The notes under the pieces: generated by a model
What the model saw: only the letters and a program-made list of their open reading frames with translations
Database searches by the model: none
Told to the model about the DNA's origin: nothing
Origin: a virus
Lineage: Duplodnaviria; Heunggongvirae; Uroviricota; Caudoviricetes
IMG/VR virus record: IMGVR_UViG_2534681759_000011
Strand: one strand, 5' to 3'
Length of the DNA stretch: 37,514 bases
Translations under genes and position numbers: made by a program
Part shown: positions 1,003 to 35,771 of the stretch, piece by piece
Position numbering within the stretch: position 1 is the first letter of the stretch
Layout of the letters: the number at the start of each line of letters is the position of its first letter

Positions 1003-1007
1003 TTTAG

Positions 1008-3627: not shown

Positions 3628-3635
3628 AGGGCGTT

Positions 3636-5372: not shown

Positions 5373-5444
5373 TTCCTGTTCCGGGCCTTTCCTGCACCTT
5401 GCGGCGGGAGGCCTTCGCACATCTGTAACAAGAGGATTGCCGCA

Positions 5445-7724
<2,280 letters not shown>

Positions 7725-7776
7725 ATTGACAACAGTCTGCCGCGACACCCTGAATGGCATAACGAAGTAAATCACT

Positions 7777-11620: not shown

Positions 11621-11624
11621 ACCA

Positions 11625-13660: not shown

Positions 13661-13686
13661 ACAGCCCCATCACGGGGCTGTTTTTT
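13661..13686 (+). terminator. Rho-independent terminator overlapping the 3' end of the portal gene
   Basis: Hairpin ACAGCCCC-ATCA-GGGGCTGT followed by TTTTTT. Confidence 0.5.
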
Positions 13687-16467: not shown

Positions 16468-16621
16468 TGCTCCCCCTGAGTAATTACAGGAAGATTACCC
16501 GCGCGCGAAACCGTTCTCCTTAACCCCCTGTTCTGGCCGTTTTCTTACAACAAAAGCCCTTTGTATCAGCCTGTTACGCTTTGCCATCATGACTGAAGAA
16601 CCAGTCAGAGGGGCAAAAACT

Positions 16622-17458: not shown

Positions 17459-17481
17459 TAAGACAAAGGAGCAAATTTTTT

Positions 17482-18534: not shown

Positions 18535-18579
18535 TCAACTCACGGCGGGCATCATGCCCGCCTGTAACGGAGAGAAAAA

Positions 18580-19380: not shown

Positions 19381-19483
19381 CGACTGACCCCGTCAGCGGG
19401 CGGCGTGCGCGGTGTTCCGGTTTGACTCCGTGACCGTTTACACCGCGCACCCACCGCCCGATTTTTTTCAGGAGTGAACCCCC

Positions 19484-19978
19484 ATGAGTATGGTTGCCAG
19501 AACTGAACCAAGACCCGCAGAGGACGACATCACCGATACCGATGATGGTGATACCCGTATTTCAGCGGGTGCATTCTGGCCGGATATTGTGCTGCGTGAG
19601 CTGCGTCTGGCGATACGACTGCCGGGCCGTGTGACCACCTCCCGCCTGCTGCATACCGCCACCGGGGCAGTGGCACACGTTACCCGCGAGCTGGAAGCGT
19701 GGCAGCAGGAACAGCAGGCGGCTGGCCATCTGACGCTGGCCGATGTTCCGGCATCCGTAATTAACGGAGAAAGCGTCAATCTCTGGCACTGGCGCAATGC
19801 TGTTTATACCGCCACACGCGCCCTGATTCTGGAGCGTTACCGCGATGCGGACACAACGGACAAGGGCGACCGCAGGGCGGACGCACTGGATATACAGACA
19901 TCGGATTTGTGGCGTGATGTGAGCTGGGCCATCTCTGACATTCTGTGCCGCCCGCGAATCTTTGCGGAGTTGTGCTGA
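19484..19978 (+). CDS. L: Head completion/stabilisation protein, P2 gpL family (164 aa)
   Basis: Position and size; stop overlaps the X start (TGATG). Confidence 0.8.
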   Translation: MSMVARTEPRPAEDDITDTDDGDTRISAGAFWPDIVLRELRLAIRLPGRVTTSRLLHTATGAVAHVTRELEAWQQEQQAAGHLTLADVPASVINGESVNLWHWRNAVYTATRALILERYRDADTTDKGDRRADALDIQTSDLWRDVSWAISDILCRPRIFAELC

Positions 19979-20178
19979 TGAAAGTAAAGGCACTGGAAGG
20001 CGACACCGTGGATTCGCTCTGTTTCCGGTACTACGGCACGACGCAGGGCGTCACCGAAAAGGTGCTGGATGCCAACCCCGGACTCTGTCAGCAGGTATTT
20101 CTGGACGCCGGGCAGGAAGTGGAGATGCCGGAGCCGGAGAAGAAGAAACGAGAAATGATTCAGTTGTGGGGGGAGTAG
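19978..20178 (+). CDS. X: Tail protein X, P2 gpX family (66 aa)
   Basis: MKVKALEGDTVDSLCFRYYG… typical of gpX; annotated ORF starts 33 nt upstream in frame. Confidence 0.75.
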   Translation: MKVKALEGDTVDSLCFRYYGTTQGVTEKVLDANPGLCQQVFLDAGQEVEMPEPEKKKREMIQLWGE

Positions 20179-20180
20179 CA

Positions 20181-20504
20181 GTGAGCACCATTCAAACAGG
20201 GATCACAGAGCAGGTTATTGCGTGGCTCTTTGACCACCTGCCAACGGTGTATGCAGTAGGCGCGGCGGTCAGCATTTCCGCGCTGATGAGTCTTTATGAC
20301 GGACGAACACTGGTTCAGACCGTAACGGGATCGCTGGCGTGCGGCGTTCTTGCCATGGCCGTGGCCGGGTCGTTGCGCTTCTTCGGGTTTCCTGAAGATG
20401 CCGTGACGTTTATCGGCGCATCAATCGGTTTTATGGGTGCAGAGAAAGCACGCGACAAGGTTATTGCGGCCTTTAATCGCAGGGTGAAGGAGAAAGACGA
20501 ATGA
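20181..20504 (+). CDS. Y: Holin (107 aa, GTG start)
   Basis: GTG at 20181 behind GGGGAG; three hydrophobic segments; position as P2 gpY; the longer annotated ORF from 19962 overlaps L and X. Confidence 0.65.
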   Translation: MSTIQTGITEQVIAWLFDHLPTVYAVGAAVSISALMSLYDGRTLVQTVTGSLACGVLAMAVAGSLRFFGFPEDAVTFIGASIGFMGAEKARDKVIAAFNRRVKEKDE

Positions 20505-20893
20505 GCAACACATTTAAATTCAGCAGCCGGAGCGAAAAGAATTTGCAGGGCGTAAATCCTGATCTGGTGAAAGTGACCCGACGAGCACTGGAAATCTCGG
20601 AAGTGGATTTTGGTATCACCGAAGGGTTGCGCAGCCGTTACCGCCAGAAGCAACTTGTGGCCACAGGTAAGAGCCAGACCAGGAACAGCCGCCACCTTAC
20701 GGGGCATGCCGTGGATGTTGTGGCTTATATCGGCAGCCAGGTGTCATGGGAATGGCCGCTGTACGAAAAAATCGCAGCAGCATTCAGACAGGCCAGCCGG
20801 GAACTGAATATTCCGGTGGAATGGGGCGGCGACTGGAAGACCCTGAAAGACGGACCGCATTTTCAGTTACCACACGGAGCCTATCCGGCATGA
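20501..20893 (+). CDS. Endolysin, peptidase M15 (L-Ala-D-Glu endopeptidase-like) family (130 aa)
   Basis: Candidate zinc ligands in SRHLTGHAVDV and GGDWKTLKDGPHFQ; replaces the lysozyme found in P2 itself. Confidence 0.7.
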   Translation: MSNTFKFSSRSEKNLQGVNPDLVKVTRRALEISEVDFGITEGLRSRYRQKQLVATGKSQTRNSRHLTGHAVDVVAYIGSQVSWEWPLYEKIAAAFRQASRELNIPVEWGGDWKTLKDGPHFQLPHGAYPA

Positions 20894-21297
20894 AGCTCTG
20901 GCCCACGCTGGGCGTCGCTTTCCTTCTGATTGCCGCATGGGGAACATCCATGCGTCTGTCGTGGTCGCTGGGCCGGGAGAACGCCAGAAACGAAGCGCAG
21001 GCCAGCACCCTGAAAAGTACCGTCGACACCCTGAATATCATCAGCGCCGGGGTACAGGATATGCAGCAGGTGCTGGCACAACTCCGCGTGGAAAATCAGC
21101 AACGCAATCAGGACGGAGAAGCCAGACGTGAACAGCTACGCAACGATATTGCAAAAGATGAATGCGCCCACGCTTTGCCTGATGCTCGTTTTACTGACAG
21201 GTTGCGCAGGCACGCTGAACGCGCCACGGCCAGCGCCGTCAGTCCGGCTTATACCGCAGACGCTGACCATACCGGTAACGCCTCCCCCCGTCCCTGA
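20890..21297 (+). CDS. lysB: LysB / Rz-like inner-membrane spanin component
   Basis: ATG overlaps the endolysin stop (ATGA); N-terminal transmembrane helix LWPTLGVAFLLIAAWG. Confidence 0.6.
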   Translation: MKLWPTLGVAFLLIAAWGTSMRLSWSLGRENARNEAQASTLKSTVDTLNIISAGVQDMQQVLAQLRVENQQRNQDGEARREQLRNDIAKDECAHALPDARFTDRLRRHAERATASAVSPAYTADADHTGNASPRP

Positions 21298-21448
21298 CAC
21301 TCCCACATGGGGAAATCTCGGTATATGGGGCGACCGCCTTCTGGATGCACTGGAAACCTGTAACGCGGATAAACGGGCCATTGAATTACTGGAACAGCGC
21401 AGGCTGCAACGACTGAACAACGAGGACAACAACCATGCTGAAAACTGA
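21158..21448 (+). CDS. lysC: LysC / Rz1-like outer-membrane lipoprotein spanin component
   Basis: Lipobox LLTGC after a short signal peptide; overlaps lysB in another frame; Pro-rich. Confidence 0.5.
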   Translation: MNAPTLCLMLVLLTGCAGTLNAPRPAPSVRLIPQTLTIPVTPPPVPDTPTWGNLGIWGDRLLDALETCNADKRAIELLEQRRLQRLNNEDNNHAEN

Positions 21449-21902
21449 TTCCCTGCGTGAAGCCATGACCCGTTCATGCCGATGGTGTCAGGCCAACCCG
21501 GAAAAATTCACCATTTTCGTGGAGAGCGGCAACATTGAAACGACCGGAGAAACGCCCTCGTTTGTTTAACGCTATCAGATGGTGATGTTTGTCATGGATT
21601 ACGCCGGGGAGCTGGACGACCTCACGCTGCCGCTACTGGCGTGGTTATCCGAAAATCAGCCACAGTTGTTGCTCAATCCGGAGCGTAATCAGGACATCAA
21701 ATTTTCCGCCGTTATCAATGACGATGACAGCGCCGATCTCCTGTTTACGCTCCCCCTGCGGGAACGCGTTCGCATTACGCGCAACAGTCAGGGGACACCG
21801 CAGGCAGAACACCTGCCGGAGCCAAAACCCCGTCTGCCCTCTTCCGAAGGCGACTGGTCGCATGTATTCCAGGATGTGACGTGGGGTGAAAGCAATGGAT
21901 AA
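21435..21902 (+). pseudogene. R: Tail completion protein R, interrupted by an in-frame TAA at 21567-21569
   Basis: A 44-codon ORF with good RBS (GAGGA) ends at TAA; the same frame resumes 9 nt later for 107 codons with no RBS of its own; combined length about 155 aa. Confidence 0.5.
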
Positions 21903-22530
21903 GGCATTCACCCGTGTGGATGAAACCTTTGAGGCCATCCGTGACAGCCTGAATCAGCAGGTCATCAATAACATCGCCAGAAAGCTGGCACAGGATTTAC
22001 GCCGCGCCCAGCAGGCACGTATCCGGTCACAGAAAGCGCCGGACGGGACCGCGTGGACACCTCGCAGACGCCGCGTAACCCGGATACAGGAGCGCATTCG
22101 CTTTATCTGGAATAACGAAGCACGCACGCTGAAAAACTGGCATCACGACACGGGGAAATACGGGCGAACCATTACCGGGTGGGATGAGGATAAAAACAAT
22201 ATCCGCACGTTTTACCGGGATGACATCGACCGTTTTCTGGAAATACGCACCCGGCGCATCAACCAGGACAGCACAAAGCGCGTCCCCATGTTCGTAAAAC
22301 TGCGCACCGCCCGCTACCTGAAAGCCCGTGCAGATGCTTCCGGTGTGACGGTGGGTTACAGCGGCGTGGCCGCACGTATTGCACGCGTTCATCAGTTCGG
22401 TGAGCGCGATCAGGTTGCGCCGGGCATTTTCACCGATTACCCGGTACGTGAGCTGCTGGGTATCAGTCAGGCAGATGAACGCCTGATTTATAACACGGTA
22501 CTGGGCCGGATTGCGGAGGCTGTACGGTGA
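21895..22530 (+). CDS. S: Tail completion / virion morphogenesis protein, gpS-like
   Basis: Position between R and V; start overlaps the R stop. Confidence 0.65.
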   Translation: MDKAFTRVDETFEAIRDSLNQQVINNIARKLAQDLRRAQQARIRSQKAPDGTAWTPRRRRVTRIQERIRFIWNNEARTLKNWHHDTGKYGRTITGWDEDKNNIRTFYRDDIDRFLEIRTRRINQDSTKRVPMFVKLRTARYLKARADASGVTVGYSGVAARIARVHQFGERDQVAPGIFTDYPVRELLGISQADERLIYNTVLGRIAEAVR

Positions 22531-23108
22531 GCGCAGAACTCATGCGACTGCTGAGCAACATCATCCGTACCGGGATCATCTCTGAAGTTGATGAGAAATC
22601 CTGGTGCGTGCGCGTTCGTAGCGGCGAACTGGAAACAGGCTGGCTGCGCTGGAACACCACGCGCGCGGGAGCCTTCAACGTGTGGCTTCCACCATCACCA
22701 GGCGAACAGGTGGTAATTGCCTGCATCGGCGGCAACCCTGAAACCGCCATGATAATTGGCAGTCTGTGGAGTGATGCCAATCCGGCACCCGGCAAAAACC
22801 TGAAAGAAATCGTGGTCAGCGCGCCGGATGGCGCGGTGTTCCGCTACGACGCAGACGCTGGCGCACTGAGCGCCAGCGGCATGAAAACAGCCACCCTGCA
22901 GGCATCCGTCAGCGTGACACTGGATACGCCCGTCGTGGAATGCACAAACCTTCTGAGAACAGCGACGCTTGACGTCACAAAAGGAGGAAAGATGAGCGGC
23001 AATATCACGCACAGCGGCGGCAGCTTCACCTCAAACGGCATCACAGTGCATACGCATAAACACGGCGGCGTTAAAGGTGGCAGCGATTCGACAGGAGGCC
23101 CGCAGTGA
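22527..23108 (+). CDS. V: Baseplate spike/assembly protein, P2 gpV family (193 aa)
   Basis: Position and size; Gly/Ser-rich C-terminus. Confidence 0.8.
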   Translation: MSAELMRLLSNIIRTGIISEVDEKSWCVRVRSGELETGWLRWNTTRAGAFNVWLPPSPGEQVVIACIGGNPETAMIIGSLWSDANPAPGKNLKEIVVSAPDGAVFRYDADAGALSASGMKTATLQASVSVTLDTPVVECTNLLRTATLDVTKGGKMSGNITHSGGSFTSNGITVHTHKHGGVKGGSDSTGGPQ

Positions 23109-23455
23109 CAACCCGCTACACAGGAATGAATCCGGACGGGACGGGAAACCTGAACGATATGGAGCACCTGAAACAGTCAGTCAGGGACATCCTGACCACC
23201 CCGCTGGCAAGCCGGGTTATGCGACGGGAATATGGCAGCCTTGTGCCTGATTTGATTGACGAACCCATGAATAACACCACGCGTCTGCAATGCATGAGTG
23301 CTGCCGTGATTGCGCTGACACGATGGGAACCCCGCATTGCCCTGGATGCCATCGACGTTGTCTGGAAAGCGGGAGGCCGCGCCGGGGTGACGTTGTCGGG
23401 CACTGTCATGCAGACCATGCAAAATGTTGAATTAACCATCACGCTGAGGGAGTAA
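23105..23455 (+). CDS. W: Baseplate wedge protein, P2 gpW family (116 aa)
   Basis: Size and position; remembered gpW similarity. Confidence 0.8.
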   Translation: MTTRYTGMNPDGTGNLNDMEHLKQSVRDILTTPLASRVMRREYGSLVPDLIDEPMNNTTRLQCMSAAVIALTRWEPRIALDAIDVVWKAGGRAGVTLSGTVMQTMQNVELTITLRE

Positions 23456-23457
23456 TC

Positions 23458-24354
23458 ATGCCTGCCGTTGACCTTGCCCAGTTACCGGAACCCGCCATCA
23501 TCGCGGAGCCTGATTTTGAGGCAATTCTGGCTGACACAAAGGCCATGATGATTGCGTCCTATCCTGCTGAACAGCGTGAAGCCGTCTCCGCCGCGCTGGA
23601 GCTGGAATCGGAACCCCTGAACGTTATCGCCCAGGCAACAGCGTTTCGTGAAATGCTGTTACGCCAGCGGATCAATGAGGGTGCACGCGCCTGCATGCTA
23701 AGCCACAGCGCCGGGACAGACCTGGACAACCTCGCGGGCAATATGAACACAAAGCGCCTGGTTATCACTCCGGCAACGGATACCACCGACGCAGTGATGG
23801 AAAGTGACACCTCGCTGAGACTGCGGGCGCAACGGGCGTATGACGGTCTGAGTGTTGCTGGCCCGTCAGGTGCATACGAGTATTTTGCACGCAGCGCCAG
23901 CGGTCTGGTACGCGACGCGCGGGCCATCAGTCCGTCTCCGGCAAATGTGACGGTTTCCATCCTGTCCACTGAAGGCGACGGCACAGCAACGGAGGCGTTG
24001 CTTAATACCGTTCGCGCCGTTCTGAATGCAGAGGATACCCGCCCGGTGGCCGACCGCCTGACCGTACAGAGTGCCAGAATCGTGACATGGCGGCTGAATG
24101 CAAAACTGTACTTTTACCCCGGCCCGGAATCCGAACCTATTCTGGCCGCGGCTGAATCGTCGTTCAGGAAGTGGCTGGCTGAGCAGGGGCTTATCGGTCA
24201 GGACGTGGCGTTGTCCGCCATTGCTGCCGCACTGCATGTGCACGGTGTGCAACGCGTGGAGATAATCGAACCCACACAGAATATGGCCATCAGCGACATA
24301 CAGGCGGCGCGCTGTGAGTCGTTCACCATCAGCGAAGGTGGGCGCAATGAGTAA
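23458..24354 (+). CDS. J: Baseplate protein J (298 aa)
   Basis: Size and position in the V-W-J-I-H order. Confidence 0.85.
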   Translation: MPAVDLAQLPEPAIIAEPDFEAILADTKAMMIASYPAEQREAVSAALELESEPLNVIAQATAFREMLLRQRINEGARACMLSHSAGTDLDNLAGNMNTKRLVITPATDTTDAVMESDTSLRLRAQRAYDGLSVAGPSGAYEYFARSASGLVRDARAISPSPANVTVSILSTEGDGTATEALLNTVRAVLNAEDTRPVADRLTVQSARIVTWRLNAKLYFYPGPESEPILAAAESSFRKWLAEQGLIGQDVALSAIAAALHVHGVQRVEIIEPTQNMAISDIQAARCESFTISEGGRNE

Positions 24355-24877
24355 TTCACTGTTACCACCATCAGCCAGCAGTTTCATGCGTTGTGCCGAA
24401 GCTGTCGGAACGCGCATTACAGACATCCCGGTAGACCTCAACACGCTGTGGTCGCCGGACACCTGCCCGGTGCACCTGCTGCCTTATCTCGCCTGGGCAT
24501 TTTCCGTTGACCGTTGGGATCGCAACTGGCCGGAAGAGGCAAAACGACAGGTGATTCGTGATGCATGGCTGATACACCGACACAAAGGGACCATCAGCGC
24601 ACTGCGCAGGGCCATTGAGCCGCTGGGATACCTCATTCGCGTGTCTGAGTGGTGGGAGTTCGGCGGAGAACCGGGAACATTTACCGTTGAAGTCGGCACA
24701 CTGGACAGTGGCGTGACGGAGGAAATGTATCTGGAAATGGAGCGGTTGATTGCTGATGCCCGCCCGGTCAGCCGCCACATGACAGGGCTGAATATCATTC
24801 AGGAGATCCCGGGAGATATTTTCGCGGCGGCAGCAACTTACGACGGTGAAGTCATTACCATTTATCCGGACGATTAA
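24347..24877 (+). CDS. I: Baseplate protein I
   Basis: ATG at 24347 overlapping the J stop; annotated ORF begins 33 nt upstream. Confidence 0.8.
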   Translation: MSNSLLPPSASSFMRCAEAVGTRITDIPVDLNTLWSPDTCPVHLLPYLAWAFSVDRWDRNWPEEAKRQVIRDAWLIHRHKGTISALRRAIEPLGYLIRVSEWWEFGGEPGTFTVEVGTLDSGVTEEMYLEMERLIADARPVSRHMTGLNIIQEIPGDIFAAAATYDGEVITIYPDD

Positions 24878-24879: not shown

Positions 24880-26439
24880 ATGAGTACCACAACACGTAAA
24901 TTTAAAACCGTTATCACCAATACGGGTGCCAAAAAATTAGCTCAGGCAGCCGCGCCAGATGGTAAGCCTGTCCGCCTGACTCATATGGCCGTGGGTGACG
25001 GCGGCGGCACTTTACCCTCGCCAGACAGTAAGCAGACCCGTCTGGTGCATGAGGTGTGGCGACACACTGTTAATCGCGTCTTCCTGGACGCAACACATCA
25101 GAACCGCATTATTGCGGAGCTGGTTGTTCCTCCAGAAACGGGCGGATTCTGGATCCGGGAAATTGGTGTGTTTGATGAGCACGGCGATTTAATCGCAGTA
25201 GGCAATACTGCCGAAAGTTACAAGCCAACCGTTGCCGAAGGGTCAGGACGTGCACAAACATTTCGCACCATTCTGACCGTATCCAGCACTGCCACTATGG
25301 CGCTTACCGTGGATAACACCATGGTAATGGCCACAGTGGATTACGTGGATGACAAACTGAAAGAGCATGAACAGTCACGACGTCACCCGGACGCCTCGCT
25401 GACCGCAAAAGGCTTTGTTCAACTTAGCAGCGCCACTAACAGCACATCTGAAACGCTGGCTGCGACACCTAAGGCTGTTAAGGCAGCATATGACCTGGCT
25501 AATGGCAAATACACCGCACAGGACGCAACCACTGCGCGGAAAGGGATAGTTCAGCTCAGTAGCGCCACTAACAGCACATCTGAAACGCTGGCTGCGACAC
25601 CTAAGGCTGTTAAGGCAGCATATGACCTGGCTAATGGCAAATACACCGCACAGGACGCAACCACTGCGCGGAAAGGGATAGTTCAGCTCAGTAGCGCCAC
25701 CAACAGCACGTCTGAAACGCTTGCGGCAACGCCAAAGTCTGTTAAGGCGGCATATGACCTGGCTAATGGCAAATACACCGCACAGGACGCTACCACTGCG
25801 CGAAAAGGGATAGTTCAGCTCAGTAGCGCCACTAACAGCACATCTGAAACGCTGGCTGCAACGCCGAAAGCAGTAAAGGCCGCATATGACCTTGCTAACG
25901 CAAAATATACCGCTCAGGACGCAACGACGGCACGAAAAGGGATAGTTCAGCTCAGTAGCGCCACTAACAGCACATCTGAAACGCTGGCTGCGACGCCAAA
26001 AGCTGTTAAGGCGGTAATGGATGAAACGAACAAGAAAGCGCCCTTAAACAGTCCTGCACTGACCGGAACGCCAACAACGCCAACTGCGCCAAAAGGGACT
26101 AATAATACTCAGATCGCAAGCACGGCTTATGTGATGGCCGCGATTGCCGCACTTGTAGACTCGTCGCCTGACGCACTGAATACGTTGAACGAGTTAGCGG
26201 CGGCGCTGGGAAACGACCCGAATTTTGCGACCACCATGACTAAAGCGCTTGCGGGTAAGCAACCGAAAGATGCCACCCTGACGGCGCTGGCCGGGCTTGC
26301 TACTGCGGCAGACAAGTTTCCGTATTTTACGGGGAATGATGTCGCCAGCCTGGCAACCCTGCAAAAGTCGGGCGGGATATTCTTGCGAAATCGACCGTTG
26401 CCGCTGTTATCGAATACCTCGGTTTACAGGAAACGGTAA
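24880..26439 (+). CDS. H: Tail-fibre protein H, constant N-terminal part; frame breaks near 26366
   Basis: N-terminus MSTTTRKFKTVITNTGAKKLAQAA… matches remembered P2 gpH; contains 132-bp tandem repeats; the conserved continuation KVGRDILAKSTVAAVIEYLGLQETVN is in the -1 frame from 26364. Confidence 0.75.
   Translation: MSTTTRKFKTVITNTGAKKLAQAAAPDGKPVRLTHMAVGDGGGTLPSPDSKQTRLVHEVWRHTVNRVFLDATHQNRIIAELVVPPETGGFWIREIGVFDEHGDLIAVGNTAESYKPTVAEGSGRAQTFRTILTVSSTATMALTVDNTMVMATVDYVDDKLKEHEQSRRHPDASLTAKGFVQLSSATNSTSETLAATPKAVKAAYDLANGKYTAQDATTARKGIVQLSSATNSTSETLAATPKAVKAAYDLANGKYTAQDATTARKGIVQLSSATNSTSETLAATPKSVKAAYDLANGKYTAQDATTARKGIVQLSSATNSTSETLAATPKAVKAAYDLANAKYTAQDATTARKGIVQLSSATNSTSETLAATPKAVKAVMDETNKKAPLNSPALTGTPTTPTAPKGTNNTQIASTAYVMAAIAALVDSSPDALNTLNELAAALGNDPNFATTMTKALAGKQPKDATLTALAGLATAADKFPYFTGNDVASLATLQKSGGIFLRNRPLPLLSNTSVYRKR
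25411..26010 (+). repeat. In-frame tandem repeat, 132-bp unit, about 4.5 copies, inside the tail-fibre shaft
   Basis: Repeated 44-aa unit ARKGIVQLSSATNSTSETLAATPKAVKAAYDLANGKYTAQDATT; unit starts at about 25411, 25543, 25675, 25807 and 25939. Confidence 0.85.
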
Positions 26440-27384
26440 ATCAGGCTTCTGGTGCATTACAGAAAAAACAGAACGGCGCAGATATTCCAGGAAAAGATAC
26501 CTTCACCAAAAATATTGGTGCCTGCCGCGCATATAGCGCATGGCTGAATATTGGTGGCGATAGTCAGACCTGGACAACCGCACAATTCATTTCGTGGCTG
26601 GAGAGTCAGGGGGCATTTAACCATCCTTACTGGATGTGCAAAGGCTCATGGGCTTATGCAAACAATAAGGTCATTACAGATACAGGTTGCGGAAATATTT
26701 GTCTTGCAGGTGCTGTGGTGGAAGTTATTGGCACTCGCGGCGCAATGACCATACGCGTTACTACGCCGAGTACATCCAGCGGTGGCGGAATTACTAACGC
26801 TCAATTCACCTATATTAATCATGGTGATGCTTATGCTCCTGGCTGGCGACGAGACTACAACACGAAAAACCAGCAGCCTGCATTTGCTTTAGGGCAAACA
26901 GGAAGCAGGGTTGCAAATGATAAAGCTGTTGGCTGGAACTGGAATAGCGGCGTTTATGATGCAGATATCAGTGGCGCATCGACATTAATCCTCCACTTTA
27001 ATATGAATGCGGGGAGTTGCCCTGCTGTACAGTTCCGCGTGAATTATAAAAACGGCGGTATCTTTTATCGTTCAGCGCGTGATGGTTATGGTCTTTGAAG
27101 CTAACTGGTCAGAGTTTTACACCACAACCCGCAAACCCTCTGCGGGGGATGTTGGTGCATATACGCAGGCAGAATGTAACTCAAGGTTTATTACAGGTAT
27201 TCGCCTGGGCGGTCTGTCATCTGTTCAGACATGGAATGGTCCCGGCTGGTCTGACAGGTCAGGTTATGTCGTTACGGGTTCAGTTAACGGAAACCGTGAT
27301 GAATTAATTGATACAACTCAGGCAAGGCCAATTCAGTATTGCATTAATGGAAGGTGGTATAACGCGGGGAGTATTCAATTATGA
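26370..27384 (+). pseudogene. Tail-fibre variable C-terminal segment, expressed orientation; reading frame broken
   Basis: Open in the -1 frame from about 26364 to 27098, then continues in another frame from 27079 to 27384 ending [13 protein letters not shown]; glycine-rich distal-fibre character. Confidence 0.5.
26407..26432. promoter_or_regulatory. gix/hix/cix-type recombination site (left inverted repeat of the invertible segment)
   Basis: TTATCGAATACCTCGGTTTACAGGAA; close to the remembered Mu gix consensus and an inverted copy of the site at 29336-29361; lies inside the tail-fibre reading frame. Confidence 0.75.
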
Positions 27385-27914
27385 TGCACTTAAAAACATT
27401 ACTGCTGGCAACCCTAAAACAAAAGAGCAATACCAGCTAACGAAACAATTTAACATCAAATGGCTTTATTCAGATGATGGAAAAAACTGGTATGAGGAAC
27501 AAAAGAACTTTCAGCCTGATACGTTGAAAATGGTCTATGACCGTAACGGCGTTATTATTTGTATTGAAAAGGATGTTTCAGCAATTAATCCAGTAAGGCG
27601 CAAGCGTCGTTGAATTACCTGATATTACAGCAAATCGCCGGGCTGATATTTCGGGTAAATGGATGTTCAAAGATGGCGTAGTGATAAAGCGAACTTATAC
27701 CGGGGAAGAGCAGAGGCAGCAGGCAGAGAATGAAAAGCAAAGCCTGTTGCAACTTGTCAGGGATAAAACCCAGTTATGGGACTCACAGCTACGGCTGGGC
27801 ATCATTTCCGACGAGAGTAAACAAAAATTAACAGAGTGGATACTCTTTGCGCAGAAAGTCGAATCTACAGACACTTCCAGCCTGCCAGTAACATTTCCCG
27901 AACAACCTGAATGA
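27381..27914 (+). pseudogene. Tail-fibre assembly chaperone, expressed orientation; split by frameshifts
   Basis: Pieces [25 protein letters not shown]… and …[22 protein letters not shown]… parallel the intact minus-strand paralogue but lie in different frames; the A-run at 27392-27396 and the region near 27592-27600 separate the frames. Confidence 0.5.
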
Positions 27915-27942
27915 GACAAGGCCCGATAGCGGGCCTTAATTT

Positions 27943-28470
27943 TTATTCAGGCTTTTGTGGCCATTCAGGATTTGCCGTATCCACACGGCTGACCAGAACA
28001 CTGTAGCGTTCCCATGCTTCCAGTCGTGTGCGCTCCTCGTCTGTTGCCATATTCAGCCTGGCAGCGCGTTCCAGTGGCTGGATGACTGATTCAGTTTCGG
28101 AAAGCAATGCGGCCTTTTGTGATTCGGCCTGTTGTTGCTGTTCGTCTGCTGTATAAATCCGCTTAACCACAGTTCCGTCCTTAAACATCCACTTCCCTGA
28201 ATCATCGGCACGACGATTGACTGTTATATCTGGAATCTCAACGACACTAAAGCCTTCGGGATTAAGCGTTGAGGCATCTTTGGTTATGGCAACAATAATA
28301 TTATTTTCGTCGTAAACAATCTTTATGGTGTCTTCCTGAAAGCTATTTACTTCCTCATACCAGTTTTTACCGTCTTCTGTATATAACCAGATAACATCAA
28401 AATTCTTTGTTAGCTGATATTGCTCTTTTGTTTTTGGATTTCCTGACTTAATATTTTTTAAATGCTGCAT
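27943..28470 (-). CDS. Tail-fibre assembly chaperone, alternative copy inside the invertible segment (175 aa, intact)
   Basis: [24 protein letters not shown]… typical of tail-fibre assembly proteins; silent in the present orientation. Confidence 0.8.
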
Positions 28471-28473
28471 AAT

Positions 28474-29335
28474 TTACACCTGTGCTACGTTATACCATGT
28501 GCCATTGATGTATTTTTGTATTGGTCTGAAGATGGCTTCATCATCGCCATCTACTTCACCAATGATTCTTAATCCGGTAATTGCGTGTCCGGCTTTTTCA
28601 TAACGACCACCACGCGCCATCAATTGAACAACTCGCGTACCCAGGCGAACATCTTTTACATAGCGTGAATCAAAATTCCCCCAGTTGCTGGGCTGTATCT
28701 GACCGTTAACAGAAAATATTACCGAGTTATCTGTATTTCGCTGGCTATAGAAATGCCATCCTGCCTCATCGCCTAACTCTGCAACTACTGGACGGGTTGA
28801 AGCACCCCATAAATTAAACGTTACATTCTTTGTGGAGGTGTTGGAGCTGGATAGCGAGATTTTTTTACATCACCTGCCTGAATGTTTTTAAAAGCAATAG
28901 CAACTCCATTCTGAAAGCGGAATACTCGCTGACTATTAGCGTAAACATCAAGAATACCGTCTCCATTCTGTTTAAATCCGGTATCATTATCACCAAGAAC
29001 AATAGAGCTACCACCTAACGCATTCGTCGTACCAACTCCAAGGCTGCCATTAATGACGGCATTAACAAGAATATTTAGTGCATCCCATTTCAGCGTCATC
29101 AGGTCTTTTGTTGTGGTGCCCTGGCGGCTTCTCCATTTGAAATATTCATTGCCGTTGTCGCCTGTTTCTAAACCAACATGAATGAATCAGTATCGCTGTC
29201 GGCATCATTTTTAAATCCAATCTTCGCCCAGTCAGTATTTCGAATCCAGGCAAGGATTGAGTCGTTTTCAAAAGTAAGCCCACCGGACAAGGTATCGCCA
29301 TTCTTTTGCACGGCGTTCCTGGCCCTGTTTACCGT
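28474..29335 (-). pseudogene. Alternative tail-fibre C-terminal segment (P2 H-like), promoterless and frameshifted
   Basis: Minus strand encodes LGLQETVNRA…GLTFENDSILAWIRNTDWAKIGFKNDAD…, …LETGDNGNEYFKWRSRQ…TLKWDALNILVNA… and a C-terminus INGTWYNVAQV, matching remembered P2 gpH, but in three frames; breaks near 29164-29180 and at the T7 run 28860-28866. Confidence 0.6.
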
Positions 29336-29361
29336 TTCCTGTAAACCGAGGTTTTAGATAA
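29336..29361. promoter_or_regulatory. gix/hix/cix-type recombination site (right inverted repeat)
   Basis: TTCCTGTAAACCGAGGTTTTAGATAA, near-identical to the remembered Mu gix sequence; immediately upstream of the invertase gene. Confidence 0.8.
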
Positions 29362-29415
29362 TGGCCGTTTCTGGCCTGCATGGCATGATTTGCGCTTTTG
29401 GACGGGAGATTCAGT

Positions 29416-30003
29416 GTGCTGATTGGCTATGTAAGGGTATCAACAAATGACCAGAATACAGACCTGCAACGAAACGCTCTTGTTTGTGCAGGATGTGAAC
29501 AGATATTTGAAGATAAATTAAGCGGGACAAAGACAGACCGACCGGGATTAAAACGCGCTTTAAAGCGCCTTCAAAAAGGTGACACGCTGGTTGTCTGGAA
29601 ACTGGATCGCCTCGGGCGAAGCATGAAACATCTGATTTCTCTCGTCGGGGAACTACGGGAGCGAGGGATTAATTTTCGCAGTCTGACCGACAGCATAGAT
29701 ACATCTTCTCCAATGGGGCGTTTTTTCTTCCACGTGATGGGGGCCCTGGCTGAAATGGAACGTGAATTAATTGTTGAACGTACACTGGCCGGACTGGCGG
29801 CAGCGCGCGCACGGGGGCGCACAGGCGGACGTCGACCGAAGCTGACAAAAGAACAGCATGAGCAAATAGCAAGGCTGATTAAAAACGGTCACGACAGAAA
29901 ACAACTGGCAATAATTTACGGCATTGGTATATCGACGATTTATCGTTACCACCCCGCAGGAGAACCAAGCGGAACAATTGAGAAGAGTCAGGAAACAAAA
30001 TAA
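29416..30003 (+). CDS. Serine DNA invertase, Gin/Hin/Cin/Pin family
   Basis: GTG start behind GGGAGA; N-terminus (M)LIGYVRVSTNDQNTDLQRNAL… with catalytic Ser; nearly matches remembered Mu Gin over the catalytic domain; C-terminal HTH. Confidence 0.9.
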   Translation: MLIGYVRVSTNDQNTDLQRNALVCAGCEQIFEDKLSGTKTDRPGLKRALKRLQKGDTLVVWKLDRLGRSMKHLISLVGELRERGINFRSLTDSIDTSSPMGRFFFHVMGALAEMERELIVERTLAGLAAARARGRTGGRRPKLTKEQHEQIARLIKNGHDRKQLAIIYGIGISTIYRYHPAGEPSGTIEKSQETK

Positions 30004-30031
30004 CCGCTAATCTGACCATTAGCGGTTTTTG
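30004..30031 (+). terminator. Rho-independent terminator after the invertase gene
   Basis: Hairpin CCGCTAAT-N6-ATTAGCGG followed by TTTTT; sits between convergent genes. Confidence 0.6.
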
Positions 30032-30038
30032 TGTTAAA

Positions 30039-30533
30039 TCAGAACATCCCTTTAACTGAACTGGCCGCGCTGTTAAGAGATGATGTCACCTTATCTTTGA
30101 AGCCGGACAGCATATCGCTGAATGATGAGGATTGCAGGCGCTCCCGCAAATCCTCATCACAGCGTTCAAGTGTCAGTGAAAATTCTATCTTTTTCGCCTT
30201 ACCGTAGCGATCAAACTCGGAACGGGTCGTATTCGTTCCGGTCAGGACATACATGCCGTAAATCTGCCCGACACCATCAATCAGAGGCCAGGGGCGTCCT
30301 GTATATGCCTGCGTGGTCAGCAGCGAAAGCGACACTTCGCCACCTGTAATTTCAGGATAAAGCACGCCAGAAAGCACGATGCGATCATCACCTGCACCGA
30401 TATACTGCCAGCTTGCTGAGCGGTTTACGCGCTCATTTTTCACATGCCGCCAGCTTTTGTTTTGCTGTAACTGCTGATGCGGCAATGTGCGCAGCTCAAA
30501 AACAAACATGCCGTAGATCATCATCATGGCCAT
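30039..30533 (-). CDS. U: Tail protein U, P2 gpU family (164 aa)
   Basis: Size and position downstream of the tape measure gene. Confidence 0.75.
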   Translation of the reverse strand: MAMMMIYGMFVFELRTLPHQQLQQNKSWRHVKNERVNRSASWQYIGAGDDRIVLSGVLYPEITGGEVSLSLLTTQAYTGRPWPLIDGVGQIYGMYVLTGTNTTRSEFDRYGKAKKIEFSLTLERCDEDLRERLQSSSFSDMLSGFKDKVTSSLNSAASSVKGMF

Positions 30534-30539
30534 GACTCC

Positions 30540-33383
30540 TCAATCTTTATCGTAAAAACTGCCACGTCCGGCACGGGCGCGCCGTTCCATTTCTGCCCTG
30601 ACCATTTCACCGACCAGTTTCGCCAGTTCGCGGGGATTCTGTGTAACAACGTTATGCAGATGAACATGAATTTCACCGCCAAATCCGGAGGCAACAGGCT
30701 CCCGGTTACGGGAATTTGCAGGAACTGATGCCACTGGCGATCGTATAGCCTCCGCCACCGGGCGGGAGCTGGCCGCAACAACAGGGACCAGCGCCGGAGG
30801 CAGCGGAGCCGGAACCACGGGTGTGATAGTAATTGCGGGGGCAGGCTTACTGACCTGCGCAATCTTCCGCTCCTGCCACTCCCCACGAACAGCAAGTGCG
30901 CGGGGCAGGTTCTTAAAGACAATATCACCGGGGCCAATGCGTTTTTTCGTCTCATCAACCAGCTTACCTGTGTTATCAGCAATTTTGCTGAGTCTGCGTA
31001 GCGTACCGGTATTGCTGTCTGTGAGTGGTTTGTTGTCTTTGGGTTTATCACCTCCGGTGCCATTGCCATTTTCCACAGGCTTCGGCGGATTGATTTTCGC
31101 CAGGTCCCCCTGAAGCAAGGCAACCTTGTCCTGAAGAATGGCCGCACGCTGTGCGTCTTCGATTTTCTTGCGCGCCCTTTCAGCTTCATCCGGAAGGACG
31201 CCAAGTTTTTCAAGTATCCACGCCAGCGTATCCAGTAGCATTTTTGCAGGTGTCAGAACAAGCTGTAACGCACCGCCAAGAACGTTACCGAATATCTCGC
31301 CAGCACTGGTACATTTATCCAGCGTTTCCTTACTGGACTCCATCGGTGACAGCAGCGATTTAAACCAGTTAAACACCTGGCTGATCCCGCTTCCGATTGC
31401 GTCAAAAACAGGGCCAAACCGTTCAAAGGTTTCGCGCAACGGAGCCAGCCGTTCCATAATCCCACTGAACACCCCTGCATAAAACGCCTTGATGGGTTCC
31501 CAGTATTTCCAGATGAGAACCGCCGCAGCCACAAACGCAGCAGCAATCAATCCGACCGGACTGAACAGCGCCCCGATAGCGCCTCCCAGTAACGAAATGG
31601 AACCCGTCACCATTCCCCATAATGCAGGCAGAACCCTGACAACATTCAATGATCCGGTCAGGAGGGAAAAACCAAGACGCAGTTTTGCCAGTGGGCCAGC
31701 AAGCACACCAATAGCCAGCGACAACGAGCCTATGGTTGCAGTCATTGCCAGCAGAGCACCGCCTGCAACCAGTAGCTGGCGCGTCAGTGCCGGATGGGCC
31801 TGCGCCAGCGCCGTCACCTTCGATACCACCCGCGTGAGCCACTGCGTGACAGAACGCTGCGGACCGTCAATCAGATCTGCAATGCGGATGCGCACCCCTT
31901 CCCATGCACTGCCGAGTGATTTCAGATCGCCGTCAAGGTTGTTGGCCATAACCTTTGCTGTGCGTTCAGCCTCACCGCGCGCGCCTTCAAGTTCTTTTCT
32001 CAGTTTGGGTAAGGAGCCGTCACCTGCCGCATCAACGAGGGCCATAAATGATGTGAAAGCCTCTTCTCCGGCAATATCCTTAAAGAACGATACCCGGTCA
32101 ACTTCCCCGTATTTGCGGGTGGCTTTATAAAGGTCAGCCAGCAGATCTTCCATCGGGCGCATTTTGCCGTTCGCGTCAGAGACGGACACGCCCAGCTCTT
32201 TCAGCGCCTCTGCTGCTGCCTTTGGCGGTGATGCCAGACGAGCCAGGCTGGCACGCATTGCCGTCCCGGCATCACTCCCTCTGATACCCATATTCGCCAG
32301 CACGCCAGCCATCGCTGCAGCCTGCTCCAGCGATATTCCCAGCTTACCCGCCACCGGACCGGCATATTTCATGGTTTCGCCCAGTGCGCGAAGGTCAGTG
32401 TTGGTACGGGTAAACGCTGCAGTGAGTGTGTCACCGACCCGGTCCATCTGGTCAGCAGAAAGGCCGAACTGCGTCAGGATATTTGAGCCAATATCCGCCG
32501 TCTCGCCGAGATCCATACCGCCAGCCGTTGCCATGCTCAACACGCCGGGAAGCGCAGCCTGAATGGCCTGCGGTGTGAAGCCAGCCATTGCAAGAAATGC
32601 CTGCCCACTGGCGGCATCGCCTGCGGTGAACTGCGTTTCAGAGCCAAGTTTTAACGCCTGCTCACGCAGCGCCTTAAACTGCGGGCTGTTCTGGTCGATT
32701 CGCGTCAGCGCCTGAACGCGGGACATCTCTTTCCCGAACCCGATTGCGGGCTGCAAAAAACGCCCGGCAGCATAGCCGCCCGCCGCTGCCGCACCAATTG
32801 CCAGTACACCACCTGTTTTCAGTTTTCCCGCTGTTTCCTGCGCACGCGAATACCGCTCACGCGCCCGCGTTACACGCGTAAGCGACTGCCGTTCGCGTTC
32901 AAGCTGGTTGTTGTACTGTTCGGTGCGCCTGATGGCCTGTTGAATGGTGTTATCGCTGCCTGTCAGGGAAATGCCGTGGCGTTTCAGCTCTCCGCCAAGC
33001 TCCCGCATTTTCTGAATTTCCCGTATGCGCGATTCATTCAGGCGTTCAAGCCGGGTGCTTAACTGCTGCATCAGCTTTTGTTGCTTTTCGCTGAGCACTG
33101 TACCCGTGCGTTGTAACTGATTAAGGGCGTTAAGCTGGCGTCGTGCTTTCACGATACCCGCATCCGCTTTACTGACAGCGTCGCGGGCGCGCTCAAATGA
33201 ACGCGCCTGACGCTCGAGATTTTTGATCGCCCCCTGCGTTCGCTGGATGGAGTCACCAAACTGCCCCATCAGGCGGCGGGCGTTTTCGGCAGGCCGGGTC
33301 AGCCTGTCAACGGCGCTGAAAGCGACCCGGATATCAAGAGTCTTCATTGTCTGCATTCCCGCTGCGAAGTGCCGCCCGCTCAC
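30540..33383 (-). CDS. T: Tail tape measure protein, P2 gpT family (947 aa)
   Basis: Long, Ala/Gly-rich, helical with hydrophobic central segments; uninterrupted 2.8-kb reading frame. Confidence 0.85.
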   Translation of the reverse strand: MSGRHFAAGMQTMKTLDIRVAFSAVDRLTRPAENARRLMGQFGDSIQRTQGAIKNLERQARSFERARDAVSKADAGIVKARRQLNALNQLQRTGTVLSEKQQKLMQQLSTRLERLNESRIREIQKMRELGGELKRHGISLTGSDNTIQQAIRRTEQYNNQLERERQSLTRVTRARERYSRAQETAGKLKTGGVLAIGAAAAGGYAAGRFLQPAIGFGKEMSRVQALTRIDQNSPQFKALREQALKLGSETQFTAGDAASGQAFLAMAGFTPQAIQAALPGVLSMATAGGMDLGETADIGSNILTQFGLSADQMDRVGDTLTAAFTRTNTDLRALGETMKYAGPVAGKLGISLEQAAAMAGVLANMGIRGSDAGTAMRASLARLASPPKAAAEALKELGVSVSDANGKMRPMEDLLADLYKATRKYGEVDRVSFFKDIAGEEAFTSFMALVDAAGDGSLPKLRKELEGARGEAERTAKVMANNLDGDLKSLGSAWEGVRIRIADLIDGPQRSVTQWLTRVVSKVTALAQAHPALTRQLLVAGGALLAMTATIGSLSLAIGVLAGPLAKLRLGFSLLTGSLNVVRVLPALWGMVTGSISLLGGAIGALFSPVGLIAAAFVAAAVLIWKYWEPIKAFYAGVFSGIMERLAPLRETFERFGPVFDAIGSGISQVFNWFKSLLSPMESSKETLDKCTSAGEIFGNVLGGALQLVLTPAKMLLDTLAWILEKLGVLPDEAERARKKIEDAQRAAILQDKVALLQGDLAKINPPKPVENGNGTGGDKPKDNKPLTDSNTGTLRRLSKIADNTGKLVDETKKRIGPGDIVFKNLPRALAVRGEWQERKIAQVSKPAPAITITPVVPAPLPPALVPVVAASSRPVAEAIRSPVASVPANSRNREPVASGFGGEIHVHLHNVVTQNPRELAKLVGEMVRAEMERRARAGRGSFYDKD

Positions 33384-33497
33384 GCCAGCTAACCACTTCG
33401 CCGGGCGTCATCATGAAGATTTCGGCGGGCGACCAGTTAAAAATAACGGCAATATCTGCCACAAAGTCTTCTATGTGCTCAAAGCACACAACCGTGA

Positions 33498-33863
33498 TCA
33501 GGCTTCCGTCGCCTGTTCGTTCTTCCCGCCAGAGTCCGCACCGCTCAAAAAATTTACGGCAACCACACATAACTGAATAAAGTCACGGGATGCCATTTTT
33601 TTGATCGTCACTTCATCCAGTCGCGGTGATGTCACGCGTGACAGCAGCGTAAACATGGATTCCGCTTTCAGATTCAGCACATCAGACAACGACAAATCTC
33701 GCAGAGATCCAGCCTGCTCAATAGCTCCGGTGATCTCCACATACGTGATTTTTTCGCCGCCTCGCTCAATTGGTTGGGTAAGTTTTACGCCACGCTCACT
33801 GGTTTCTTTCACAGTGTCAGCAACGACCGTGTTTTCGGTATCGATGTTTTTCGTCTCTTTCAT
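33498..33863 (-). CDS. E: Tail assembly chaperone E; the E' product extends to 33334 by programmed -1 frameshift
   Basis: E frame ends …VNFLSGADSGGKNEQATEA; the -1 frame entered at the TTTTTTG slip site continues KFFERCGLW… to a stop at 33334, overlapping the T start. Confidence 0.75.
   Translation of the reverse strand: MKETKNIDTENTVVADTVKETSERGVKLTQPIERGGEKITYVEITGAIEQAGSLRDLSLSDVLNLKAESMFTLLSRVTSPRLDEVTIKKMASRDFIQLCVVAVNFLSGADSGGKNEQATEA
33545..33551 (-). promoter_or_regulatory. Slippery heptamer T-TTT-TTG for programmed -1 ribosomal frameshifting (E to E')
   Basis: Minus-strand sequence AAATTTTTTGAG; same slip site as described for P2 E/E' and analogous to lambda G/GT. Confidence 0.6.
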
Positions 33864-33917
33864 CAGGAAACTCCTTTCAGTCAGAGGCGACGCACTGCGC
33901 CGCCTGCATATTACTTA

Positions 33918-34430
33918 TCAGCCAAGCCCAAGCGCGGAACGGATGCGATCGGGCACAATGTCCTTGCCGTCCTTCCGGTAAATGAAGTTCAGCAGGTCAA
34001 TCTCCCACAACGGGCGATCGTTAACACTCAGCTTGTAGTAGGTGTTTTTAATGGCGTAAGTGTGTGATGTGGCTTCGCCCTGTTTGGCTTCCCCCATATC
34101 AATTTCCGTCACACGTCCGCGCATTTCGACTTCATACAGGTCGCTTTCTGCATCGGTGTAGTATTCACCCGCAAAACGCAGCAGCGTGCCGTCAATCGTG
34201 CCGCCATACTTCAGGAACAGCTCACGAACTGCGCCCCCCATGACAAAGCTCGCATCAAGCGCGGAGTCGTCCAGACCGAGATCAATACTTACCGCACCCA
34301 TCATGCCACCACCCCGGTAGCTGTCGGTTTTGCGCGTCAGCTTAGGCAGAGTGACGGACGTCACCTTACCCACTTCGTTTTCACCATCCACAAACAGCGT
34401 AAAAAAGCGAAGATGTTTTGGCACAGCCAT
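33918..34430 (-). CDS. FII: Tail tube protein, P2 gpFII family (170 aa)
   Basis: Size and position after the sheath gene. Confidence 0.85.
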   Translation of the reverse strand: MAVPKHLRFFTLFVDGENEVGKVTSVTLPKLTRKTDSYRGGGMMGAVSIDLGLDDSALDASFVMGGAVRELFLKYGGTIDGTLLRFAGEYYTDAESDLYEVEMRGRVTEIDMGEAKQGEATSHTYAIKNTYYKLSVNDRPLWEIDLLNFIYRKDGKDIVPDRIRSALGLG

Positions 34431-35614
34431 CAGGCACCTCCCAGCACCGCAAATGCAGGTTCAAAGTATTCATCAGTAAACGTCTGGTAAAGCTCCATGT
34501 CTTCCAGTGGCGGAACAGGCGTATATTTGTAGCGAATACGCACACGCCCCTGACGTAAATCCGTGGTGCTGTTATCCACCACGTCATACCAGCACTCCGC
34601 GCCAATCAGTTTCCCGGCAGTAACCAGTGAATCCAGTTTTGCCCTGATGGCACTGATAACATCCTTCACGTTCGCAGGCGTCAGTGGACTGTCGATGGTT
34701 TCAAACTGCGCTTCTGCAATTGAATCAGCCAGCACCTGTGCGGTTCGGGTATACACCTCAAAGATGTAGGCGTTCGTTTCCGGTGTGCGGTTGCCCCAGA
34801 AGCGGAACCCGTTGCGACGAATAATGGTCGTGATTTCTTTGTTGTTGAGGCTGTTGGCATCACTGTCTTCGGCCTGCAACGACCAGAACACATGCCTGGA
34901 CATTCCCAGCACATTTTTAACAGGAACGTTGGACAGCGATTTGTGCCAGCCCTGCTCATGGTCAATGTACGCACGAAGGCCGCACGCATAGGCAGGCGCG
35001 GGGAACGTTTCGTTTTTGCCACTTTTCGGGTTGTAGGCGATGAAGTCCGGCCATAAGAGCATCACCTCACGTTCGTTGAATTTCTGGCGGTAGGTAATCG
35101 CCTCAGCCATCGTGTTACAGCCGTGACATGAGGCATACACAAACGCGCGCAGTTTACCCGCAATCACGCACAGGGATTTTGTTACCGCCTCCGTGTCCAG
35201 CTCCGGCGCGGCCAGAATACGCGGACGGTATCCGATGCTTTCATCCTGCTCTGCAACAAGCAGCGCATACATCCCCGTATAGCTGCCGTCAGATTCAGAA
35301 CCACCGATAACCAGTTGATCCTGCGTTTTTCCGTCTTCTTCTTTGTGTTCAGCCACGCGAACGACGATCACCTTTGTGCTCACCTGGTCTGCGATGGCCT
35401 TAAGCGCACGATAAAGCGTCCCCGTTGTCCCGCATTTTCCCAGCACGTCATTGACGCGGGTCAGCAGTGTGGGCTTGTTCAGCGGGAACAGCTTCGCGTC
35501 CGCATCATCCGCCGTTGCCACGATACCGATAACGCTGGAATCAACATCGTTAATCGCTGTTACCAGGTCGGTATTTTCCGTAACACGGGCACCATGAAAA
35601 CGAGTTTCACTCAT
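34430..35614 (-). CDS. FI: Contractile tail sheath protein, P2 gpFI family (394 aa)
   Basis: Size and remembered gpFI similarity. Confidence 0.9.
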   Translation of the reverse strand: MSETRFHGARVTENTDLVTAINDVDSSVIGIVATADDADAKLFPLNKPTLLTRVNDVLGKCGTTGTLYRALKAIADQVSTKVIVVRVAEHKEEDGKTQDQLVIGGSESDGSYTGMYALLVAEQDESIGYRPRILAAPELDTEAVTKSLCVIAGKLRAFVYASCHGCNTMAEAITYRQKFNEREVMLLWPDFIAYNPKSGKNETFPAPAYACGLRAYIDHEQGWHKSLSNVPVKNVLGMSRHVFWSLQAEDSDANSLNNKEITTIIRRNGFRFWGNRTPETNAYIFEVYTRTAQVLADSIAEAQFETIDSPLTPANVKDVISAIRAKLDSLVTAGKLIGAECWYDVVDNSTTDLRQGRVRIRYKYTPVPPLEDMELYQTFTDEYFEPAFAVLGGA

Positions 35615-35771
35615 AGCTTCAGCCCCTTGTATCCGTTAAATGATTCGGCAACAATCATCACCCACCACGCGCGTAATCTCACCCCTGCGCCGTTCTCCCG
35701 CCACGGCGACAACAAAAAGCAGTAACCCCCTCCGCACGCACATGCGACCATGCCGCACAGGGAGGGAGCAG

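Follow-up and report, generated by a model that had tools for sequence, protein, structure and literature searches.

A probable Gin-type inversion switch in the tail-fibre locus of a P2-like Escherichia coli prophage

Introduction

Switching of the tail-fibre tip by a Gin-type invertase is textbook knowledge for phages Mu and P1 and for the element e14. Here we describe a locus of this kind in a DNA stretch of 37,514 nucleotides (IMG/VR record IMGVR_UViG_2534681759_000011), hereafter the window, which is a nearly complete P2-like prophage of Escherichia coli deposited as contig AQFA01000039.1 of NCBI assembly GCA_000355255.2 and which, on sequence comparison, belongs to the Xuanwuvirus-type P2-like lineage (Peduoviridae). 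Its tail-fibre locus probably serves to switch the host range of the phage by site-specific inversion of Gin type: two inverted gix-like sites enclose two alternative fibre tips with their chaperone genes, and the genomes of sister prophages differ by a precise flip between these sites.

The C segments of P1 and P7 (Cin) and the P region of e14 (Pin) share with the window the serine invertase family and the logic of fibre-tip swapping, and the C segments of P7 and P1 have a DNA identity of 89-95% to the window cassette over roughly half the query length. P1 differs in that Cin is 72% identical to the window invertase, the sole cix-like match in the P1 region examined deviates at 5-6 of 26 positions, and cin, seen from the constant part of the fibre, is found at the opposite side of the segment.

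Such switches have also been described in P2-like phages. In Fels-2, a P2-like prophage of Salmonella with fin, a pin homologue, strains LT2 and LT7 differ by the orientation of the segment next to fin (PMC7953296); by description it resembles the window in that the invertase adjoins an invertible tail-fibre segment, while host genus and sequences differ. In the P2-like prophages of enteropathogenic E. coli (EPEC) E2348/69, coexisting orientations were found in clonal cultures by whole-genome sequencing (Goldberg et al., 2014; PMC4272514), one prophage carrying a simple two-state locus and another a three-repeat shufflon, with enzymes that are close hin homologues (PMC4272514); we liken these loci to the window by description and not by cassette allele. 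DNA invertases with inverted neighbouring genes are moreover frequent at the P2 Z/fun hotspot (2024 preprint, 10.1101/2024.10.15.618418).

Xuanwuvirus phages 503458 (NC_049341), 520873, P88 and P884B11 have a DNA identity of 92-94% to the window (92.6% for Escherichia phage 503458, with identical gene order), and the annotation of NC_049341 reads like the window, with I, H, tfa, a second tfa and a tip on the minus strand, a DNA invertase, and U-T-E-FII-FI on the minus strand. They differ in that cassette alleles and sites are slightly different, the sites of 503458 showing 2-4 mismatches to those of the window. The paper describing phage P88 makes no mention of inversion, and a 2026 survey of P2-like viruses makes no mention of invertases. 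Given Fels-2 fin, the EPEC P2-like prophages and the annotated Xuanwuvirus phages, the system is already known, and the switch is a real but ordinary one.

Recombination sites, invertase and enhancer

The tail-fibre locus contains an inverted repeat of 34 nt, 94% complementary, at 26407-26440 and 29328-29361, in which two 26-bp cores are found.

26407..26432, plus strand: left site, gix-like, TTATCGAATACC-TC-GGTTTACAGGAA; crossover dinucleotide 26419-26420
29336..29361, minus strand: right site, gix-like, TTATCTAAAACC-TC-GGTTTACAGGAA on the minus strand; crossover dinucleotide 29348-29349

The core pattern has 2 matches in the window versus 0.00 expected from 100 shuffles, and both cores, read in the same site orientation, share the central dinucleotide TC that is also found in Mu. 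In Mu both gix sites read TTATCCAAAACCTCGGTTTACAGGAA, from which the left site deviates by 2 mismatches and the right site by 1, all of them in the outer half-site, the inner half-site being identical. An earlier reading made from the sequence alone (the sequence-only reading) had placed two inverted 26-bp gix-type sites at exactly these coordinates and had named a failure of the repeats to align to gix as grounds for giving the idea up; both sites align to Mu gix. The left site encodes the peptide IEYLGLQETV, and the constant part of the fibre is P2 H-like up to and through it.

As in Mu, the invertase gene lies outside the segment, next to the right site, and points away from it; an enhancer homologue is found inside its 5′ end.

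29416..30003, plus strand: Gin/Cin/Pin-family serine DNA invertase, 195 aa, intact; likely start GTG 29416
29434..29505, no strand assigned: homologue of the Fis-dependent recombinational enhancer, inside the 5′ end of the invertase gene

Two Pfam families are matched above their curated cut-offs, Resolvase by residues 3-135 (E = 1.3e-50) and HTH_7 by residues 138-181 (E = 1.6e-13). The protein is 81% identical to Mu Gin, in agreement with the Gin/Hin family to which it had been assigned from the sequence. Residues 1-38, including the Ser9 motif YVRVSTNDQ, are identical to Gin, and Cin differs at one motif residue (E for D); the N-terminal catalytic part is conserved with both enzymes, and the C-terminal DNA-binding third diverges from Gin. 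The corresponding 588-bp coding sequence (CDS) in relatives is annotated in RefSeq as WP_000905056.1. A comparison with gin and cin, which the sequence-only reading had proposed as the way to locate the enhancer, places it at 29434-29505, the stretch that aligns with the enhancer annotated in the P1 record (cin nt 19-90); the window is identical to Mu gin at 71/72 positions and to P1 cin at 54/72, Mu and P1 being identical at 55/72.

From these elements the following course of events can be proposed. Dimers of the 195-aa serine invertase would bind the two inverted 26-bp sites, Fis at the enhancer in the 5′ coding region of the invertase would nucleate the synapse, Ser9 would cut both strands at the central TC, and after a rotation of the subunits by 180 degrees the ends would be religated. 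Each of these steps is established for the family and would extend to the window by homology, as would the change of host range and the activity in this strain. Inversion would flip 2,929 bp (2,931 bp in the window record) and would join the constant N-terminal ~510 aa, which are P2 H-like, to one of two tips: in state 1, that of the window, a Mu S′-type tip followed by the U′-type chaperone gene, and in state 2 a P2 H-type tip followed by the P2 G-type chaperone gene. The tip and chaperone gene lying downstream would be expressed from the late operon that includes V-W-J-I-H, neither tip having a start of its own.

Inversion in the lineage

As an intact reference we used the prophage of E. coli O114:H49 strain 90-9280 (L001), which is 99.7% identical to the window over 5.2 kb. 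The same prophage is found in strain ETEC-2264 of enterotoxigenic E. coli (ETEC; L005), the two having protein accessions, an insertion sequence IS100 between U and T, and an internal stop in gpR in common. Between the site centres their 2,929-bp segments are 100% identical and lie in opposite orientation, with 0 mismatches in 3 kb on each side. A second pair, L011 and L014, carries a different cassette allele of 3,055 bp, and here too the segments are identical and opposite, with 0 mismatches in the 3-kb flanks.

The right junction to be expected after a flip (the start of the Mu S′ tip in reverse complement, followed by the right site, the invertase and gpU) has a counterpart with 100.0% identity over 1,691 nt. 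Judged by the right junction, the present state is found in 104 and the flipped state in 64 of 5,426 complete E. coli genomes; both states of the left junction exist as well (356 and 125 genomes), in counts that include lambdoid prophages with the shared module. Because the genome pairs differ by the flip only, and both states are found in complete genomes, sequence comparison shows that the lineage inverts precisely at the two gix-like sites.

Since the flip between the 90-9280 and ETEC-2264 prophages postdates the lesions that they share (the gpR stop and IS100), the switch works in a defective prophage and may flip there without any phage being produced. A switch that works in a defective prophage is known from e14. 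The paired genomes offer clean evidence from nature that flipping continues within a defective prophage.

Two alternative fibre tips and their chaperones

The modules of the fibre locus are as follows.

24880..26418, plus strand: constant N-terminal part of the tail-fibre gene (P2 H-like), Pfam Phage_tail_fib and Phage_fiber_2
26421..27384, plus strand: variable fibre C-terminus, currently joined (Mu S′ / G(-) type); L001 copy 94% identical to Mu S′
27381..27914, plus strand: tail-fibre assembly/chaperone gene of the plus strand tip (Mu U′ type); relative's copy 95% identical to Mu U′
27943..28470, minus strand: alternative tail-fibre assembly gene (P2 G type), 175 aa, intact; 90% identical to P2 gpG over all 175 aa
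28474..29347, minus strand: silent fibre C-terminus (P2 H type, ending INGTWYNVAQV); relative's copy 96% identical to P2 H residues 392-669

In the reference prophage an 832-aa H reads through the site and is followed by a 177-aa tfa, a 175-aa tfa and a 278-aa tip, and the ETEC-2264 prophage has the flipped arrangement; in these two relatives the frame continues across the site into either tip and on to its own chaperone. Over its N-terminal ~250 aa the reference fibre shares 73% identity with P2 H; the ~220 aa that precede the site also align closely with it, and one stretch, TLTKVGRDILAKSTVAAVIEYLGLQETVN, is identical in the two. In the window, an 83-aa fragment of the plus strand chaperone matches Pfam Caudo_TAP.

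These homologies support what the sequence-only reading had seen in the segment, namely two fibre C-termini and two assembly genes on opposite strands, and they uphold its description of the silent copy as P2 H-like. The expressed tip, called there different and glycine-rich, does differ from that of P2 H and is more exactly Mu S′, the G(-) form. The present state would thus be a P2 fibre shaft with a Mu G(-) tip, and the flipped state would recreate essentially the canonical P2 H-G pair. The claim that inversion swaps the fibre end together with its chaperone holds in the two relatives; the genes of the window itself are frameshifted by six insertions or deletions (indels) that had been overlooked. 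Likewise the fibre frame had been said to pass through the left site: the open reading frame (ORF) from 24880 does run through it, in the wrong frame owing to the deletion at 26361, and meets a stop at 26439.

The design, a constant N-terminus with two tips and two chaperone genes, is that of Mu, and one module of the window is Mu S′/U′ (94-95%). Unlike Mu, the window element is a P2-like myovirus and not a transposable phage, its constant part is P2 H-like, and its second module is of P2 H/G type rather than Mu S/U, the tip being 44% identical to Mu S overall and nearly identical over the first ~90 aa. Canonical P2 is like the window in that the fibre and chaperone of the flipped state would come very close to those of P2 (96% identity to H over the tip, 90% to G), and in that H has one gix-like site at the homologous position; it is unlike the window in being without second site, second module and invertase, and in having an FI-U operon that runs in the same direction as H-G.

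The gix-like 26-mer in P2 gene H (L008:1858-1883), a phage without invertase, sits at the would-be crossover position. As P2 H keeps this single site, with 1 mismatch to the left site of the window, P2 may equally be a fixed derivative, and such a switch may survive in frozen form in its H-G pair. The sequence-only reading had concluded that a P2-like phage has acquired a Mu/P1-type switch. It identified the switch correctly and overstated its novelty, near-identical cassettes occurring in more than 100 complete E. coli genomes, and evolution may equally have run in the other direction.

Several further observations concern the fibre gene. The constant H part contains tandem 132-nt (44-aa) repeats in about six copies (25276-26067), and 132-nt units are annotated as "repeated element a" in gene S of the P1 record. 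Fibre lengths among relatives range from 661 to 863 aa, to which the copy number of the 132-nt repeat may contribute, and the H repeats are the end point of most short-read contigs of sister strains. Among loci with identical gpJ, one (L010) has a fixed 863-aa fibre and chaperone without a second module or invertase, and another (L018) encodes a 199-aa invertase and, on both strands, several short ORFs with a Collar domain, an arrangement suggestive of a shufflon-like cassette of multiple segments. The fibre locus is a hotspot of module exchange.

A copy of the cassette in lambdoid prophages

The same module is carried by a lambdoid prophage of the ETEC-2264 chromosome (L004, 1294038-1306636) with gpJ, Lom and an Stf-type fibre. 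Its constant part of ~600 bp is 96.6% and its whole 2,929-bp segment 98.6% identical, the gix sites are identical, and of the invertase gene only the first ~190 nt are present, the recombinase CDS being 195 nt long and encoding 64 aa. This cassette presumably needs a trans-acting invertase, which the P2-like prophage of the same genome, for example, could provide. Since one strain has the module in both prophages, the P2-like and the lambdoid, cross-talk between prophages can be tested.

In a further assembly (L022, GCA_004522725.1, SOOP01000012.1, 13447-20135), the P2-like H and cassette are joined to a lambdoid right flank with the 64-aa invertase fragment, a methyltransferase and a BPD_transp_1 permease where ETEC-2264 has potB. 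Either the contig was mis-joined across the repeated cassette, or a real rearrangement between the two prophages has reshaped a large part of the chromosome.

Frameshifts in the deposited sequence

Relative to the reference prophage, six indel events lie in or beside the cassette of the window.

26361: -1, constant fibre part, 46 nt before the left site
27092: +1, plus strand tip
27391: -1, plus strand chaperone gene
27594: +1, plus strand chaperone gene
28868: -1, silent minus strand tip
29169-70: +2, silent minus strand tip

The H ORF (24880-26439) ends at 26439 because the 1-nt deletion at 26361 shifts its frame; it crosses the left site out of frame and stops at 26437-26439, 5 nt beyond the site, and its frame differs from that coding IEYLGLQETV and the fibre tip. 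In a three-frame translation the plus strand tip, the silent tip and the plus strand chaperone gene are each spread over two or three frames, and a T-to-C change at 27376 turns the fibre stop TAA into CAA. Only the minus strand chaperone gene (27943-28470) and the invertase are intact among the genes of the cassette region. No full-length fibre is possible from the deposited sequence in either orientation, and the in-frame reading seen in the relatives is not found in it. Programmed frameshifting was considered as a cause of the indels and rejected, all relatives being without them and reading straight through.

Compared with the reference, five further copies of the 2,929-bp cassette type show 0-37 substitutions and 0 indel columns, against 9 substitutions and 6 indel columns in the window. 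The IS100 of the window (5777-7731) differs from that of the reference by 3 single-base indels (6772, 7030 and 7060) and 0 substitutions, with istA frameshifted, while the unique stretch 30572-36039 adjoining the cassette has 1 mismatch and 0 gaps. The deletion at 26361 is present in none of the complete E. coli genomes (best match 99.8%), a truncated 519-aa H product is recorded on one contig only, the window's own, and other loci with identical gpJ have intact fibre genes in 9/9 cases. The cassette is a repeat within these genomes, as the second copy in ETEC-2264 illustrates, and two orientations are possible in one culture. A search with the exact gpJ protein and the N-terminal gpR fragment for a second assembly of the window's strain returned only sister strains and the same contig.

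The accession series of the window includes a sister assembly (L023, GCA_000354815.2, AQDF01000042.1) with 21 gap openings in 14 kb versus ETEC-2264; its prophage is the same as that of the window, many of the genes (gpM, gpJ, tape measure) being split. Indel errors can be numerous in assemblies of this series.

Weighing the explanations

The six indel events are likely to be consensus errors in a repeated region of a draft assembly, this being the likeliest explanation because IS100 shows the same indel-only pattern as the cassette; if so, the real locus is probably intact. That they represent real decay is unlikely, and slightly less likely still is the full account in which the cassette has decayed to pseudogenes while sites and invertase remain, so that a dying switch in a defective prophage might flip and yield no functional fibre. 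The record as deposited does contain the six events, several of them outside homopolymer runs, and there is other damage in the prophage, namely the TAA in gpR (21567-21569) and the IS100 copy. Against such decay stand the natural cassette copies, which vary by substitution only, the equal pattern in the multi-copy IS100, the unique phage DNA beside the cassette, which is free of indels, and the confinement of the indels to this one contig.

The idea of errors in an intact switch has points of its own to face. The indels outside homopolymer runs fit it poorly, and real damage elsewhere (the gpR TAA, common to relatives, and IS100) makes further real decay plausible. Between 29120 and 29181, six positions carry the bases of the lambdoid copy and are flanked on both sides by P2-like sequence; these substitutions within the silent tip could represent real gene conversion between cassettes, or else a chimeric consensus. 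Inversion in this strain and the status of the indels as errors would follow from relatives rather than from reads, and enhancer function and Fis dependence would follow from homology.

It is also conceivable that the host keeps the locus for another use, either as a source of invertase acting in trans on other cassettes, such as the orphan lambdoid one, or for fibre-derived proteins that block superinfecting phages in the manner reported for PinQ and StfE2 of e14; should the indels be real, with three of the four cassette genes and the fibre gene dead, it would be the invertase that is kept. We regard either form of the idea as very unlikely. Cross-complementation among Gin, Cin, Pin and Hin has long been known. 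The lambdoid copy of ETEC-2264, with its identical gix sites and a recombinase CDS of only 195 nt, would be a suitable substrate, and the invertase, both sites and the enhancer homologue are undamaged in the window despite the defective prophage. A precedent has been reported in prophage Qin, whose invertase PinQ acts in trans on the P segment of e14, inverting it and inhibiting the adsorption of T2 (PMC12529663). On the other side, the second cassette is known from a sister strain, ETEC-2264, and would have to be assumed for the window's own strain; conservation of the invertase over so short a divergence is uninformative on selection, and the proposal would extend known biology rather than add a new kind.

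The notion that the inverted repeats are a fixed relic, conserved only as the code for IEYLGLQETV, and that nothing inverts, draws on P2 H, which has the same sequence with 1 mismatch in a phage without invertase. It has hardly any probability given that two inverted sites adjoin an intact invertase and enhancer homologue, that in the present state the right site falls on the non-coding side of the gene pair to which it belongs, and that in each of two pairs the prophages are the same except for the segment between the site centres, which is precisely flipped.

An inversion switch whose record has been damaged by assembly is thus the reading we favour. As a discovery it carries little weight, this very cassette being found, with annotation, in numerous E. 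coli genomes as well as in Xuanwuvirus phages of RefSeq. Its practical lesson is that a repeated two-state locus degrades draft assemblies: the "pseudogenes" of the window are not to be taken at face value, and predictions of gene decay or host range from such records need checks at read level.

Prophage context

The remainder of the window is arranged as follows.

1-1002, minus strand: integrase
7777-10584: gpA, replication protein
13670-16467, minus strand: portal and terminase
16589-24877: head, lysis and baseplate genes
30039-35614, minus strand: U-T-E-FII-FI, 3′ of the fibre locus
about 35800-36881, plus strand: D
29994..30035, no strand assigned: hairpin between the convergent invertase and gpU genes, an inverted repeat with 18-nt arms, 89% complementary, and a 6-nt gap

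By the Pfam families of the called genes, the P2-type gene set and order is present, with Q, P / O, N, M, L, X, lysis, R, S, V, W, J, I, H / FI-U and D in addition to gpA and integrase. The prophage is probably defective because the tail-completion gene gpR (21435-21902) has an in-frame TAA and a copy of IS100 lies in the early region, directly upstream of the gpA ORF. The gpR TAA is common to strains 90-9280 and ETEC-2264 (flagged "internal stop" in RefSeq) and to many sister assemblies, and is absent from ETEC H10407 and from the gpJ-identical loci L010-L016, L018 and L019.

The FI-FII-E-T-U tail operon lies on the strand opposite to H and D, whereas in P2 FI to D follow H-G in one direction. 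The inverted arrangement is common to L001, L002, phage 503458 and L010, the relative without cassette or invertase. The operon (30039-35614) was considered as a second, larger invertible segment, an idea rejected because the arrangement is fixed across the lineage, including the invertase-less L010; no gix-like sites or inverted repeats beyond chance flank it.

Between gpA and the portal gene, at the old/tin cargo hotspot of P2, lies a plasmid-type partition pair (10661-11936) made up of a gene for an actin-like ParM/StbA protein (E = 3e-82) and, after it, a small gene with a Plasmid_stab_B Pfam match. The hairpin at 29994-30035 is probably a bidirectional terminator, as judged from its arms and its position between convergent genes.

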